64,000 nt of DNA from positions 73,098,001-73,162,000 of the forward strand of contig JAGIQG010000011.1 of the NCBI GenBank assembly GCA_024679065.1, given 5' to 3'. The notes beneath the pieces are model-generated. The model was not told where the DNA came from. It worked only from the letters and a program-made list of their open reading frames with translations, and made no database searches. Shown here in pieces: positions 41,806-64,000 of this stretch (positions are counted from its first letter, which is position 1; every line of letters starts with the position of its first letter). The translations under genes were made by a program, and so were the position numbers. Source of the stretch: Sphyrna mokarran. Lineage: Eukaryota.

Positions 41806-44044
41806 AGCACATGTTTAGCAGACCAGCGCGTACCAATATATCAACTTTTACCCATTCTAACACTCAGAAATTACAGAGCAATCTTTAAAATTGCAAGAGA
41901 AGATAACAAATATGATGATAAAATTGCAGGTACAGAATTGTGAAGTTTCACGTTGGGACACCAAAAATCTCACAGAAGTTACGTGGCAATTAATTGACAT
42001 GACAAGGGCTTGTTTGCAATCAAGGTCCGATGAAATCATTACATTCAAGGGCACAATGATGAGATGTAACTGGGGATAAATCAGATACTTTCCAGCTCCT
42101 CAACCACCATGCCCCCTATCTCATCTAGGACCAGATATCAATTAACATTGACAGTAATAACATCCAAAAATGATAATCCCACATAACACTAAGAACCATT
42201 AAAGACACCTCCAGACAAAGTTACCATTATAAGACCTGGGCACCCAAGCAAATTACCTCTGTGCTTTTAAGGCTCATAGATTTACCAGTCCTGTACACTT
42301 ATGTAATTAAATGCGAAGATGCATCACAAGTAGTTGTACATTTTAGAAAGGGGGATCATATTTTTAAAAAGAAAGAGGAATGATGTAATATTGCCTTTAA
42401 GGACTGCAGCATGCTGTGGCTGTGCTATGTGATCCAGTCTCAGTTTCATGTTTGCCTGTGAGCACAGCACAGCACGCACAGCTCTGCTGATATCTTCAAG
42501 CGATATACCTATGCATATCTGTTTCCATGTGCCTAATCTTAATAAATGAACACAAAACATATTTATCTTATGAGTGTTTGGTGCCTTTCTATAATTTTGA
42601 AAACATGACTCCAATCTGGGGTAAGAATTCCAAAACTAACGATCCTTTGAGAGAAGAATTTCCTCCTCATCTTCACCTTAAATGGGACACCCCTTACTTT
42701 GAAAGTGTGCATCCCATTTCTAGATTCTCCATGAAAGGAATGATCCTCTCAAGGCCCCTCTCAGGTACACTGAAGATCCTATGGCTGAATCACCTAAAGA
42801 GCAGCAATTGTCATTGGATTTCTGCTCTACTCAAACTTTCCTCCATCTCGATGCAGCTCTGCTTGTTTTTCCAAGTGAAGCTTTACCAGAAATGTGGAGT
42901 GCAGCATCCAACCAGAAGCTCCTTCACAGAGGAGTAGAATTGGAGGAGGGTGGTGGGGATGGCATGTGCCTTTTATGGCACTTGCTGCTGTATTGTAAAT
43001 TTAAATGCCCAGTATGAATGTTAATGAATTGGTGAGTTGATGAATGAGTGAATGGGTAGGTTTCAGTGTGGGCAGGTTGGGTGAGATGGTAAATGAGTAA
43101 GATGGTGGATGTGCAAGATGAAAGGTGGGTAAGGAGTGGGATGCATAGAGGCCAGATAATTGAGGTGGCAGGTGGGCAAAGTGGCATGTGGGTTAATGGG
43201 CAGGGTGGATAGGTGAATGAAGTGAGTCGATCAATGAATGATGAGGAGTAGTCATACTGGGTAAGGTGAGGTGGTCAGGTCAGGGGCTCTTGAGATTGGG
43301 TCAGACAGTAGTCAGGTGCTGGTCTTGTAGTCAGGTGGTCACAGGTTAGTCACGGTGGGTTGGAAGTGTCACCCTTGGAGTGGAAGGTGGAGTCAATGTG
43401 ATCATATGAGTTACTGGTGGGTCAGTTGTGTAGTTTCCTAGGAGTTAAACTAGGGGTTGGAGTTCTCCAGTCTTGCATACGCCACTATCACTGCCAACGA
43501 GATCGGAGAATTCTGGTCTAGGTTTTTTTTAATCATCATATCCAAGGTACTTATTTAGATAAGGAAATCAAAACGTCCAAAGTTTCTGAGTCTAGCTTAG
43601 AGTTAGAAACACTTGCAAAGGTTTCCAGGGAGCAACAAAATTACCGATTGGAAGCTGAAATTTCCTGGACAATTTTCACAGATGTCAGTGCACCACTATT
43701 TCCATGATGTCCGAACACACTTCCAAGATCACATGTCTGATCTCTGACAATCCAAAGACTGCAATTTGGCCTGATATATTTGGTTTCAATTGAAAAATCC
43801 TGTTGGGGAGAGGGGCCATAAAATTCCATTCTAGTGGTCTCCCATTTAAGAATGGGATGAGAAGAACTTTTTTTTGAATCTTTGAAATCTTCCCCAGAGA
43901 TTAGCAGAGCAGAGTCAATTTATATTTTTAAAGATAGAGGTAGATAGATTCTTAACTAACGAGGGAGTTAAAGGTTACTAGGGGTTGGCAGGAATGAGGA
44001 GTTGAGGTTACAGTCAGATCAGTCATGATTAAATAACTTCAACT

Positions 44045-44569: not shown

Positions 44570-45330
44570 ATTCACATCTCATTCTTCTAAACTCCCACCA
44601 TTATGGATACAGCCTGTTCAACCTTTTAAACATATTTGAAACCTATTCACACAAATTAGGAGTAGGATAGGTCCTTCAGCCCTTTGAGCCTGCTCCACCA
44701 TTCAAGAAGACCATGAATGATCTAATTGTAACATCAACTCCCCATTCCTGACAACTTCTGACAACATTTGACTCCCTTGTTAATTAAGAATCTATCTTTC
44801 TTTGCCTTAAAAATATGAATTGGCCTTCCCTCCTCCTCTCTCTGGGGAAGATTCCAAAGATTCACAAAAAAAAAGTTCTCTTCATCTCATTCTTAAATGG
44901 GAGACCCCTTGGGTGGAATTTTGTGGCCCCTCTCACTGGCAGGATTTTCCAGTCTTGCTGAAGTCAATAGACTTTTGAATGGCATGCCACATTTTCCGAC
45001 ACTGCCCATGACACAGTAGGTTATAAGATTCTGCTCCTAATTTTTAAACTGGCTTAAATTTCCCTCATGGGACAACCCTCAGGAATCAACCTCATGAGCC
45101 TTCTCTGAACAGCTTCAATTCAAGTATATCCTTTTTAAATAAAAAGACCAAAACTGCACGCTGTACTCTGGTGTGGTGTTTCCAATGCCCGAGGCAAGAC
45201 TTCCATCAAAGCTAACATTCCACTTGCCTTCCTAATTACTAGCTTTACCTGCACACTAACTTTTTTATGATTCATATGCAAAGCCACCTGGATCTCTCTG
45301 CATTCTGCCGTCTCTCCCCAAATATTATGG
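44570..45330 (-). mobile_element. CR1 fragments with a MITE inserted at 44911-45036
   Basis: VQVKLVIRKASGMLA in minus ORF; CR1 tail at ~44650; MITE flanked by ctt/cta. Confidence 0.75.
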
Positions 45331-46007
45331 GATGTTATATAATTTAGGTAATCTGAGGCAAATAGGTTGAGTGTTATACACTTTGATTGATATTTACAGT
45401 GTATCACTGTTTGTGCTCCTTCATTGCAGGAGTGACATAATTCTTAGGTGCTTCCCTTGATGAGACACAGCAGAACTGAGTCACCACCTTCCCTTCCTTT
45501 GATTGTAGGTGTTAGCTCCTGGAGAGGCAAATCCATAAGTCACCGAAGCTCGGCTGCAGTAGTATATACTTGTGCCTGAGGTTTTTAACCACCCACTTAC
45601 TGATCCGTCAAGTTGTCCAACACAATTTTAACAATTTGATGTTCTAATAAGTGTCATTCTAAATGAGGAAGAGCAGAACTTTATTGAAGCAAGAAGCGCT
45701 TTTATAAGCACAAATCTTCCTGGTGCAATGAACCAAGAGATTTTATGGCTTTAATTAGTTTATGACTTTTCCATGGTTTCAACTCAGCGCAGAACTTCCC
45801 TCACATTTAGATCAACAGCTGAAGTCCATTTTTCAGTGGTTATCTTTCAAGTTAACATTTCATGTTTGATCTTTAAAATGGACTCCAAACAATTAATCAG
45901 GCATTGCTGCAATAATACATGCACGTTCAGAGCATGTTGTGAATTCATGCAGGATTTATGAAAATTCACTGAATTGTTAGCTCTCATCACTGAATTGCTT
46001 GTCCAGT

Positions 46008-46084
46008 AATATAACAACTGTGCTATCATACAGTCATATGATCACTGGGCTAACATACAGTATTATGACCACTGTGCTATCATA
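46008..46084. repeat. ~26-bp tandem repeat x3
   Basis: ataacaactgtgctatcatacagtc / atatgatcactgggctaacatacagt / attatgaccactgtgctatcata. Confidence 0.8.
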
Positions 46085-46874
46085 TTCAGCATCTGGTTGT
46101 CAACAGCCACAACGCAGCATTGTATTTTTCAAACTCCTCAGGCTATAAGTGTCACCATTAAAAGAATGTAAAAGGAAACTAACATTGTAAATCTTTCAGT
46201 GATGTCTAACTTCAGTATAGTTTTAGCTTCTGTGAAATTCAGGTAAGTGATTGAAGCAGATGGCTTGGAGCCCAATCTGCTGTCAATTGCCCATTTCAGG
46301 GAACACTGCATAGGCGCAGAGCCGTAATGACCATTACACTAGTACTAGGGACAAATACTTCGAACAATAATCCACTAAGCATCAGTAACGTTCATCTAAA
46401 TTTCAATAAACATACCATGTGATACTTAAAATATATTGTTATAATTCCAGGACACTATCATTAACATGTTACTGACAAAATTCCAAAAATAATTTAATGG
46501 TTCCGTTGCAGACACAAATGGCATGAGCGTATATCCAATATCACAGCCCATAGCGACTATTGAAACTTTGCCTCTTGCCACTCCATTCCCCCCACAAAAA
46601 ATCAAATATTGAATTCTCAAGTAGCAAATCTTGCAAGCCTAACAGGAAATATTTTTCCATGCAGGGAGGATGTTACTTTTCTGTTTACCGAACACTTCAG
46701 TGCAAACTGTGTTTTGGATTTGACAATTTCACAGTTTGAAGTACTGTGCACACATGATTAGATCAAAATACTTCTCCCCCCCAAAAATTACTAGCAGATA
46801 ACTAATTAAAGATTAGGGGTTGTGCAGTCTTTTCTCTAACAGCAAAAGAGGGAAGTGGAAGCCATTTTTCAAAA

Positions 46875-47530
46875 CTTCACTCATGGGATGTGAGCTTAGT
46901 TGGCTGGATCAGTATTTATTGCCCACCATTAATAGCTTTTGAGAAGGTGGTGGTAAATTGCCTCCTTTAACTGCTGCCATTTGTATGTGTAGGTGCATTG
47001 ACTGTGCTGTTAGTTTAAAGTTTATTTATTAGTGTCATAAGTAGACTTATATTAACACTGAATGAAGTTACAGTGAAAATCCACTTTCTGCCTGTTTGGA
47101 TACACTAAGGGAGAATTTAACATGACCAATACATCTAACCAGCATGTCTTCCAGACTTTGGGAGGAAACCAGAGTGCCACGAGTAAATCCACGCAAACAT
47201 GGGGAGAACATACAAACTCCAGACAGTGACCTAAGCATGGAATTTAACCTGTGTCCCTGGCACTGTGAGGTAGCAGTGCTAACCACTTCCAGACTTCCAC
47301 CCAGCAACAGTGAAGGATAGTGATATATTTCCAGATTAGGATGGTGAGTGACTTGGAAAGGAACTTGCAAATGGTGGTGTTCCCTAGTCCTTTTATGTGG
47401 CAGAGGGCAAAGAAGGTGATATCTAGGGAGTCTTGGTGAACTCCTACAGTGCATCTTTTTGATGGCACACTCTGTTGCTACAGTGCACCGGTGATGGATA
47501 CAGTGAATATTTGTAGATGGGATGCCAATT
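46875..47530 (-). mobile_element. Zenon-like LINE 3' part split by a tail-B V-SINE (47013-47288)
   Basis: IGIPSTNIHCIHHRCTVATECAIKKMHC in ORF 47068-47571; family tail at 46875-46960. Confidence 0.85.
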
Positions 47531-47587
47531 GATGTGATTGACATGTTCCCAATTATGAACAATTTTGACAAAATTGCTTATGGAAAA

Positions 47588-47790
47588 ATCAGTTCAGCTT
47601 TTTGGTTAAGACCAAACATTAGATCAAGCCCAAGATGGGATGCAATGCCTCATCTTCTCAGCTTGGAGTTTGTTTGTCTCCATTGGTGAGACTTTGAATT
47701 AGATTCAATTGTTTTTGAATTTGGTTTTTGGAGCAAGCAAGGAATGGGTTTGGGTTTGCCTGATCCATCCTGAGCACTGGCTTTGGACCT
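47588..47790 (+). pseudogene. Divergent U2 snRNA-derived sequence
   Basis: Four collinear blocks versus recalled human U2: 47596-47615 vs nt 11-30 (16/20); 47653-47664 vs nt 44-55 (10/12); hairpin gtctc/gagac at the stem IIb position; 47723-47735 vs Sm-site region nt 98-110 (12/13). Confidence 0.75.
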
Positions 47791-49809
47791 TAAGAATGGT
47801 GATTCCTATAACAAAGAGCTTAAGTAAGAGGGGACATATATAAACCTGACAAAATTGAGGGAAATAAATGAGGTCAGATGGGAAATTTTTCACTGAATGT
47901 TAACAAAGTTGGAGGATGCATTACCTGAACGGAAAGTACTGGTGGGATTGATCCTTGAAAAGAGGACAAGTGTTTTCTTTCATCCAGAATTCACCTACAC
48001 TGAATCATTATTTCATGAATCTGATTTATATAAATAGAAATGAAGGAGGGGATTTTTTACCCCTCATCTGCTCCCTCATCAAGAGGAAAAATACAGTAGA
48101 ATGTTGACTAGGTATGATGGAATGGATGAAGATTTCTGCTTTGTAGATTTTGCTGGCGGATTAAGTTAACAGTCGTTACGAGCAATGCGGTGACCACACC
48201 AATTTAACACAGCGATTATTCACAAACCAACATTAATCCATAAATTTAATGGCATAATATTGGTATGATTCAAAATATGGGGGTAATTTTCTGAGGCGTC
48301 TTCTGCTGTAACCTCTACCTCTCACCTCACCCTGAATCTTCCTTCCACTCATCCCAATCTCCTTCCTATTCTACTGCCACTTTGTCTAGCAAAGATAAAA
48401 TGCTAGGAGGTCGTTTTCCTTTACTCCCCTTCTGCCCAACCTTCTCATTTAGTTTCCTCCAAGTGACTTGATTTGCTTTCAAATTAAACATTTTTCAACA
48501 AGATAAAGAGAGATCAGGTTAGAATGAGTTGGGAAACTGCCCACCTAGATTTCTATTTGTCTTTTACGGATTGATTACAGCACAGAAAGAAGTATTTTGG
48601 CCCATTGGTCAGCTAGTCCCCAGAGCCCTGCAAGTCTTTTTTTCTCTTCAGGTGCTTATTCAATTCCCTTTTGAAATCCATGATTAAATCTGCCTCCATG
48701 ACTCTCAGAACTTAATCACTTGCAGCGTGAAAAACTAGTTACTTCACCACCTAAAATTTGTGTCTCTGATTCTCAATCCTTCTGCCACCAATAGGAACAA
48801 TCTGTCCCTATCTAATTTATTGAGGTCATGGGAGGGCATGGGGGGATAAGGCGATCAGGAATGTTGTGGGGTGGGACAATATCTGTGGGGGCCGGGTGGA
48901 GGCAAAATGATAAAATGTGGTTCAGAGTCTGTCTCACTCAATAATTGTGTGCCTCTGCTGACCCTAATTTAAATTGCCCCAGCTATCATTGTAGGATTTG
49001 AGCCCTTTTCCTCGGAGCAATAGCCTGGGTTTCTGGATTACTAGCCCAGTGATATCATCACTATCCCACCATAAAAACATGTATAGGCAGGGAATAGAGG
49101 AATACAGATAACAGAGAGGCAAAAGGTCTTTAGTTCAGAAAGGCGTCATATGTTAGCCAGGCTTAGTGGAATAAAGAGCCTCTTCCTATACTGTGATGCT
49201 CTCTGTTCTTTGTTCTACCTCCCCATCACCTTGATGCTCCTGCACTCCCTTTATAAATTGTATCCTACATTTTATATTGTCTCTCCTCGTCTTTTTTTCT
49301 ACCAAATTTTTCACTTCATATTTCTCTGCATTAAATCACGCCTGCCACAAGTAATGTCCATTACATCAGCCTATCTTTACCCTCTTGAAGTCTATCACTA
49401 TCCACTTCACAGTTCACCATACTTCCAAGTGTTGTGTCATCTGCCAATACTTCCAAGTTTTGTCACACGGTCTATGCCACAGGGGTTCTCAGCTCCGGTT
49501 TTGCAGTGGAGAAACTGTCAGCAAACCTTATCATTATTCCACTGAAGTTGACAGCCATGTTGAGAGTTTACACATGCGCAAAATAATCATGTCTGACTCA
49601 ATGTTCTCCCCAAGGGTGCAGTGTTGAAGTCCCCCTAGATTGTGATCCTGAAGCAATCAGTGAACTGATGAAAACTTCAACTTTTTTTGTTTTGTTCTCA
49701 TGAATAAAATCAGCGGAAAAGCTACAACTTTTGGAGATGTGTACAATTTTTTTAATGGGGTGTTCATTTCATAATTACTGCTAAACACCCTCACTCGATC
49801 TGAAAAGGT

Positions 49810-63434: not shown

Positions 63435-64000
63435 AAACTAAAATCAGACAAATTCACAGGACCTGATGGCCAACTTCCCAAAGCTCTAAAAGAGATAGCT
63501 GCAGAGATAGTGGATACACTAGCTAATCTTCCAAATTTGCTTAAATTTGGGAATGGTCCCAGCAGATTGGAAGTTGGCTAATGTTACCATGCTTTTCAAG
63601 AAGGATGATGGAGAGAAAACAGTGAACTACAGGCCAATTAAGTCTAACATTGGTTGTTGGGAAAATAGTGGGAACTATTGTTAAGGAAGTCTTAATAAGG
63701 CACTTTGGAAAGCATTGGATGATTAGAACAAGTCAACATAGTTTTATTGAAGGGAAATCCTGTGTGATAAATTTATTAGAGGATGTAATTAATGGGGTCA
63801 ATAAAGGGGAACCAGCAGATGTAATATACCTAGATTTCCACAAGACATTTAATAAGGTGCCAAAGAAAAGGTTAATAGGCAAGATAAGAGCCCATGGAAT
63901 TAGCTATAATATATTAGCATGGACAAGAAGCAGAGGATGGACATAAATGGAGTATTTTCAAATTGATAGAGACTGAGGAGTTGAGTGCCACAAGGATCAG
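63435..64000 (+). mobile_element. CR1 LINE RT fragment (runs off the window)
   Basis: DWKLANV..FKK..NYRP; SQHSFIEGKSCVINLL..DVIYLDFHKTFNKVP. Confidence 0.92.

Follow-up and report, generated by a model that had tools for sequence, protein, structure and literature searches.

A decayed element of a probable high-copy, U2 snRNA-derived retroposon family in a shark genome

The window analysed here, a 64-kb stretch of shark DNA, carries at positions 47588–47806 of its forward strand an element homologous to nucleotides (nt) 1–188 of the spliceosomal U2 snRNA, interrupted by two expansions of +24 nt and about +17 nt. Its extent follows from a global alignment, from the span of the Rfam model and from the edges of raised contig depth, and it runs to about 47806 rather than ending at 47790, as the original prediction had it. 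The element lies in a ~41%-GC setting and is non-coding (no open frame of at least 90 aa crosses it); at ~220 nt between the depth edges it is also short (<500 bp). From 5′ to 3′ it consists of a U2 head, three 12-nt units of which the last opens a branchpoint-interacting stem-loop (BSL), relics of stems IIa and IIb, the second expansion, an Sm-site homolog, and homologs of stems III and IV. The four collinear U2 matches first proposed for this place (head, stem IIa entry, a GTCTCC/GAGAC hairpin and the Sm region) are all found in the sequence.

The reference for these comparisons was L008, a vertebrate-type rather than a shark U2, and one of 101 distinct full-length U2 genes obtained from the 131 U2 loci that a 24-nt motif search returned. 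In the global alignment of the element to L008, 116 of 173 aligned columns are identical, 41 differ by a transition and 16 by a transversion, and the homology extends to U2 nt 188 at 47806. Profile methods see this homology only faintly. Rfam RF00004 places its model positions 1–192 at 47588–47809 at a score of 15.4 bits, the cut-off being 46 (E-value 4.5 over 4227 Rfam families, with five other families equally weak in the same 2.5 kb), and across the whole window no Rfam family reaches its own cut-off. Nhmmer alone is not significant either (E 0.087 with L008; E 5.3 and 9.1 with the 101-sequence U2 profile). When transitions are taken into account in local alignment (scheme A), the element scores 62 vs 35 at the best other site among 2548 window tiles, and a second weighted scheme (C) gives 52 vs 33 at the next best site, while the unweighted scheme (B) does not separate the element from background (36 vs 35). 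A score of 62 was reached by none of 5000 dinucleotide shuffles, by none of three sets of 3000 local shuffles and by none of 200 shuffled-U2 decoy queries run over the whole window (decoy maximum 55).

If the stretch were T-rich DNA that resembles U2 by chance, the Rfam and nhmmer E-values and the failure of the unweighted scheme would be as expected; the shuffles and decoys would not, nor would the preservation of U2 nt 11–34 without change in other copies, and we regard this explanation as scarcely credible. The original prediction had named the lack of a significant covariance-model match as grounds for abandoning it. The match to RF00004 is indeed not significant, and we judge this sub-threshold score to be outweighed by the alignment statistics together with the near-intact U2 head in other copies. 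The U2 homology of 47588–47806 is genuine and old.

The head (47588–47619, forward strand) aligns to U2 nt 1–34 and ends in the first 12-nt unit (47608–47619). Over 47593–47619, 19 of 27 positions are identical to U2 nt 8–34 and all eight differences are transitions; stem I is largely decayed (-0.8 kcal/mol vs -7.4 in U2). Behind it stands a second copy of U2 nt 23–34, unit 2 (47620–47631, forward strand), which is kept ungapped in two paralogous contig records (11 and 18) and contains the agatcaag motif correctly recognized at the outset as a repeat of U2. A third unit begins at 47632 and leads into the BSL (47632–47656, forward strand, in the register of U2 nt 23–47). Identity to U2 nt 23–34 is 8/12, 8/12 and 7/12 in the three units (the last at 47632–47643), and from 47632 to 47670 the sequence aligns ungapped to U2 nt 23–61 at 22 of 39 positions. 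On this alignment, three 12-nt units of U2 nt 23–34 describe the first expansion better than some 30 nt in place of nt 37–43 would; of the earlier description the net gain of 24 nt stands, and two extra units align better than a replacement. Likewise, GUAGUA had been described as broken: it is changed, yet the branch-site sequence is mutated and not absent, its homolog being GCAATG at the aligned place in the register of unit 3 (47642–47647; three transitions).

Around this mutated loop the BSL is fully paired in this copy, with 8/8 stem pairs vs 6/8 in U2 and a predicted energy of -6.9 vs -0.8 kcal/mol (values for this copy only). Full pairing is owed to A30G and U43A together with a C28G/G42C swap. 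The homolog of U2 nt 23–47 holds only three transversions, at 28, 42 and 43, all of which make or keep base pairs. Under simulated random mutation at equal load, 8/8 pairs arose in 761 of 200000 trials and an energy as low in 817 of 20000 (4%), which, for a post hoc test of one of six stems examined in a single copy, makes it suggestive that a fully paired BSL around the mutated loop exceeds chance expectation. Two of these changes, A30G and U43A, are the two BSL-stabilizing mutants described in the accessible part of PMC13019295; there, in human cells, reporter splicing was slight or absent and expression very low with U43A or the double mutant, while A30G alone had little effect. The element thus carries both stabilizing changes plus the C28G/G42C swap.

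In the 3′ half, conservation is uneven. The stem IIa entry TCTTCTCAG is present at 47653–47661, and the stem IIa relic (47657–47675, forward strand) has mostly lost its pairing (-1.2 vs -4.6 kcal/mol in U2). The stem IIb homolog (GTCTCC … GAGAC; 47676–47692, forward strand) had been described as altered in sequence and still pairing; it does fold as a 6-bp hairpin here (z -1.0), and the alteration looks specific to this copy or its subfamily, as other copies keep a U2-type GGGGAC arm and read GGGGACCAT at this place, the same as L008 U2. Next comes the second expansion (47693–47723, forward strand), present ahead of the Sm site as predicted. In the alignment it repeats U2 nt 85–98 in several registers (identities 8/14, 10/14 and 8/14 starting at 47693, 47698 and 47710). 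It is common to other copies and also occurs in a 5-nt shorter form (11–15 contigs per run). A predicted 13-bp hairpin (47696–47727, -10.2 kcal/mol) extends from it into the start of the Sm site. The Sm-site homolog (47724–47731, forward strand; alignment to L008) has in this copy a G instead of the leading A at 47724, and is followed through TTTTTGGAGCA (47725–47735), the match to the Sm site and the start of stem III. Homologs of stems III and IV and of the U2 3′ end fill 47736–47806 (forward strand); by fold energy stem III is as in U2 (-15.1 kcal/mol) and stem IV is weakened (-3.9 vs -16.0), and the segment 47730–47808 has a z of -0.41. Folded as a whole, the element does no better than its shuffles (z -1.0, 33/200), and none of six whole-element or segment folds had a z below -1.2. 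Runs of five T occur at 47599, 47712 and 47725, and no tRNA was called on the element. Set against functional U2 (RF00004), then, the likeness is one of homology over model positions 1–192, while the element departs from it in the model score (15.4 vs 46 bits), in the branch-site sequence (GUAGUA to GCAATG), in the Sm leading A (G47724) and in stems I, IIa and IV (-0.8, -1.2 and -3.9 kcal/mol).

Evidence that this structure is shared came from contigs of 4 of 13 listed runs, one for each of four organisms (A–D), aligned to 47300–48350 at 80% likeness; run X1 may be the source of the window itself, and the other three runs are independent. The 13 include no RNA run, which carries no information about expression. 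Summed depth over 47624–47659, a stretch absent from U2, is 26,401, 13,725, 23,327 and 29,833 in organisms A–D, compared with 12.1, 5, 7.4 and 13.1 over the single-copy flank 47804–48163, i.e., a ~2,200–3,100-fold excess. All six bins across 47588–47803 are raised (depth 1,367–45,466, each at least 135-fold over the flank), from the bin starting at 47588 to the bin ending at 47803, and depth is single-copy again at 47804. Chance matches do not explain this depth, because the AT-rich flank draws essentially no extra matches. Summed depth is not a copy number; read as an order of magnitude, it points to a family of roughly a thousand members or more.

The individual matches agree with the depth. 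Of the 32 matches listed, out of a set that holds 21,203 more, 24 align only inside the element (~81–87%), mostly as parts of longer contigs with unlike flanks, and records 11 and 18 span 47600–47747 with no gaps, across both expansions; none of those listed gives a second copy over its full length. The other eight are this locus or its orthologs. Orthologous contigs, ~92–95% alike, bridge the 5′ junction in organisms B and C; at the 3′ junction they do so in D as well as in B and C. The insertion was hence in place before the sampled organisms diverged. Searches elsewhere were negative: blastn and tile alignment found no second copy in the 64-kb window (weak matches near 19200 and 27150 do not extend), and a U2 motif had no match in viral contigs. 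A family motif likewise had no viral-contig match, and its one prokaryote match (L132) stops at the pattern edge and was set aside as chance.

An ordinary single U2 pseudogene, with insertions by local slippage and with depth contributed by normal U2 genes and pseudogenes, would account for the slippage-type character of both expansions, which are short tandem duplications, and for the lack of a second copy in the window. It is largely refuted, and to us highly improbable, given paralogs that run ungapped across both expansions and a depth excess that falls on sequence U2 does not have. Two expansions common to many copies are not expected of retrocopies made independently from normal U2, which separates the family from ordinary U2 retropseudogenes. 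The depth excess, the gap-free paralogs and a family A-run at the 3′ end together point to a dispersed U2-derived family rather than a lone pseudogene. This bears out the proposal of a shark repeat family derived from U2, of which the locus is a decayed member and no plain pseudogene, with high depth confined to the element in all four runs.

The ends of the family can be glimpsed in consensuses of the loose, unaligned contig ends (24 of 1,413 rows, 30 letters each, read by eye), which, being built from contigs that fail to align at those places, may describe another subfamily. Immediately before 47621, 105–123 contigs per run (X1, X2 and X9) carry a U2 head. The X1 consensus matches U2 nt 11–34 at 24/24 positions and is followed by C, so that the head stops after nt 34; agreement is low (0.46–0.47), which would fit variable 5′ ends. 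Before 47713, 104–140 contigs (X1, X2 and X3) read GGGGACCAT as in U2 and then the second expansion, a consensus from which this copy departs at 7 of 29 positions. Downstream of 47785, 117–157 contigs in 4/4 runs continue for 18 nt, ending in the homolog of U2 nt 170–184, and then enter an A-run; the family A-run begins after about U2 nt 185. This copy has no clear A-tail (40–50% A after 47800) and ends like mature U2, unlike the loose-end consensus.

Some contigs join these ends to one another. One X1 record passes from the 3′ end through the A-run and GCTA into unit 2 (47785 to 47621), and seems to be a head-to-tail dimer whose second copy is without unit 1. Among the joint rows listed, 10 of 12 jump back by ~46–54 nt, from 47664–47676 to 47621–47632, and such joints were seen in all four runs; they are unreliable at 80% likeness, and would fit repeated head addition or an internal duplication of the stem-loop unit in some copies. 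They also hint at internal repetition in some copies, which would suit a larger repeat, such as a Tx1 LINE, a non-autonomous DNA transposon or a minisatellite, with this stretch as the one surviving piece at this locus, be it the U2-derived head or an internal part. Tx1 families with U1 or U2 heads are described in the accessible part of PMC4494074, and loose ends reveal only 30 letters. Against such a larger unit stand the A-run 18 nt after 47785 in 4/4 runs and the return to single-copy depth at 47804; furthermore, downstream no LINE-like match rises above noise, and no tandem array lies at the element. We consider this reading very unlikely.

At the flanks of this copy, an 11-nt direct repeat (47566–47576 and 47847–47857, forward strand) is a candidate target-site duplication. 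It is offset from both element ends, its right copy lying 40 nt past the U2 end and differing at 2 of 11 letters in three other organisms, and a repeat of at least this length arose by chance in 5 of 2000 random segment pairs. A CR1-like tail directly after the element was considered and rejected, the best scores (55, 50.5 and 50) being scattered and none above noise. Comparison with the flanks of L008, a weak test with a non-shark U2, gave scores that 69% and 37% of 2000 random segments equal, and a 3′-box pattern, also a weak test, had no match at this locus. Separately, a perfect 8-bp inverted repeat with a 1-nt spacer (47560–47576) lies 11 nt upstream of the element and overlaps the left copy of the candidate duplication.

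Taken together, these data lead us to read the element, with a probability of roughly 0.8, as a decayed copy of a dispersed, high-copy family that derives from full-length U2, likely a non-autonomous retroposon for which a LINE, in a shark ancestor, would have used one source locus or a few as template. Besides being old, the copy at this locus is probably inert. As a mechanism, we suggest an L1- or Tx1-type enzyme that would have started reverse transcription of the RNA at its poly(A) end, given that no LINE-derived tail is present. Transcription of the source would have been by Pol II and driven from outside the element, because the T5 runs speak against Pol III and U2 itself lacks an internal promoter. 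A fresh head of U2 nt 1–34 may have become attached to a U2 body that was older and diverged; template switching could have done this, or else a Keno-like insertion into a U2 gene, in which case a promoter would come with it. The latter is an option because the junction of Keno and Utopia at nt 39 is close (4 nt) to the nt 34 junction seen here. The weakest step supposes that the locked BSL and scrambled loop would leave the RNA unable to act at branch points, so that an abundant U2 mimic could be tolerated.

A different source is conceivable, namely a genuine variant U2-like snRNA gene of this lineage that is or was functional, with a Pol II promoter and an Sm core, and whose closed BSL and extra hairpin were adaptive; the copies would then be its processed pseudogenes. 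The whole U2 length is kept, including the homologs of the Sm site, stem IIb and stem III, the three transversions within nt 23–47 all make or keep pairs, and this copy ends as mature U2 does. Against this, no intact or young copy occurs among the matches listed (the longest paralog pieces are 81–87% alike), no promoter- or 3′-box-like similarity was found at the locus (again a weak test with a non-shark gene), the family has an A-run that mature U2 is without, and stabilized BSL mutants are poorly expressed in human cells according to the accessible part of PMC13019295. We consider this origin unlikely; the earlier idea of a variant snRNA is ruled out for this locus, and could hold for an unseen source gene.

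The retroposon reading places the family next to the SINEU elements, whose class features recur here: a 5′ head derived from U1 or U2, many copies with one rearranged structure, a 3′ poly(A), and a short, non-coding body. Also ascribed to the class are internal oligo-T with no internal Pol III promoter, target-site duplication or truncation at insertion, and mobilization by a Tx1-type LINE of like target preference, with which the T5 runs, the offset 11-nt candidate duplication and the single-copy 3′ flank of this copy may be compared. In the accessible part of Kojima's 2015 description (PMC4494074), no SINEU was detected outside crocodilians, template switching is invoked for SINEU heads, and SINEU transcription is left open; a 2017 review (PMC5381603), in its accessible part, mentions SINEU only in crocodilians. 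As SINEU-3 is described there (PMC4494074, accessible part), the shark element resembles it in being short and built from U2, in its poly(A) end and shared structural change, probably in internal oligo-T, in a U2 head broken near nt 32–34, and in abundance (~1,600 SINEU-3 copies vs a thousand or more here). The two differ in that SINEU-3 has lost ~50 bp internally after U2 nt 32, whereas the shark element shows no such loss and gains two duplications; SINEU-3 ends in ~40 non-U2 bases, whereas the shark element is U2-homologous to nt 188; and SINEU-3 sits inside Mariner-N4_AMi in 313 of 347 cases, whereas the shark copy has a single-copy 3′ flank. We infer a separate origin from SINEU-3, the two being set apart by published description and not by sequence. 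SINEU-1 and SINEU-2 are alike in the recurrent 5′ addition of U1 or U2 heads and in partial duplication within snRNA-derived parts, while the 3′ body of SINEU-1 is not snRNA-derived and the head of SINEU-2 comes from U1, neither of which holds for the shark element (PMC4494074, accessible part). Keno and Utopia, for their part, are U2-targeting LINEs after whose insertion the downstream U2 starts at nt 39 (PMC4640811, accessible part). They place a LINE body between U2 nt 38 and 39, in contrast to the shark element, which has no inserted coding sequence, just 24 extra nt, and in which a diverged U2 body follows the head junction.

In the literature searched, i.e., the accessible parts of openly available papers (among them PMC4758252, PMC5786205, PMC10468316 and PMC11979771), no shark U2-derived SINE appears, and neither SINE nor snRNA occurs as a term in the accessible supplement of PMC10620051. 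The family may already have an entry in Repbase or Dfam. Within that literature snRNA-headed SINEs are in print only from crocodilians, and the shark family would represent a second vertebrate lineage. Shared by at least four organisms in an order of a thousand copies or more, it offers material for the open question of SINEU transcription, and if the locked stem-loop were a family trait, it would link a natural repeat to the recent experiments on U2 BSL stability. We advance one bolder scenario as rather unlikely. Here, a U2 mimic disarmed for splicing would have given rise in sharks to a SINEU-type family of independent origin, with a U2-promoter source, an Sm-binding 3′ half and a locked BSL, and the source might still be expressed as a variant snRNA. 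The shark BSL would have been locked by changes that silence U2, where crocodilian SINEU-3 instead deleted the region, and if this were true, disabled branch-site recognition would in general be what opens the way for U2 to turn into a SINE.

The surrounding window is rich in tRNA-type SINE copies and LINE relics. Upstream of the element and not part of it, a LINE-like repeat fragment lies on the reverse strand at 46870–47530, pointing away from the U2 head, with other copies in the window and a depth of up to 105,684; it is interrupted by a tRNA-SINE copy at 47012–47287. We take the tRNA-type SINE to be HE1-like and the left fragment to be a LINE. HE1 is a V-SINE of sharks and rays according to the accessible part of PMC4824008. 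A chimera of the element with the left fragment was considered and rejected, the two being on opposite strands and ~55 nt apart. A LINE frame of the window has 22 homologs, including one from Scyliorhinus torazame at 79%, which fits a shark origin, and Pfam gave no match for the frame of the left fragment (46870–47530). Six window frames searched against Pfam yielded two weak matches below the cut-off: a GIY-YIG match (E 0.0026) in the frame at 21857–22147, which is likely a Penelope-type relic, and a reverse-transcriptase fragment at 63626–63946 (RVT_1, E 0.00016). Long inverted arms at 43791–44027 and 44712–44951, ~700–990 nt apart and 75–85% complementary, possibly belong to a non-autonomous DNA transposon, and a 27-nt unit is repeated three times in tandem at 46004–46084. 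Downstream of the element, a single-copy stretch at 48150–48260 contains several CpGs and TAAT motifs and has orthologs, with many substitutions, in three other organisms.
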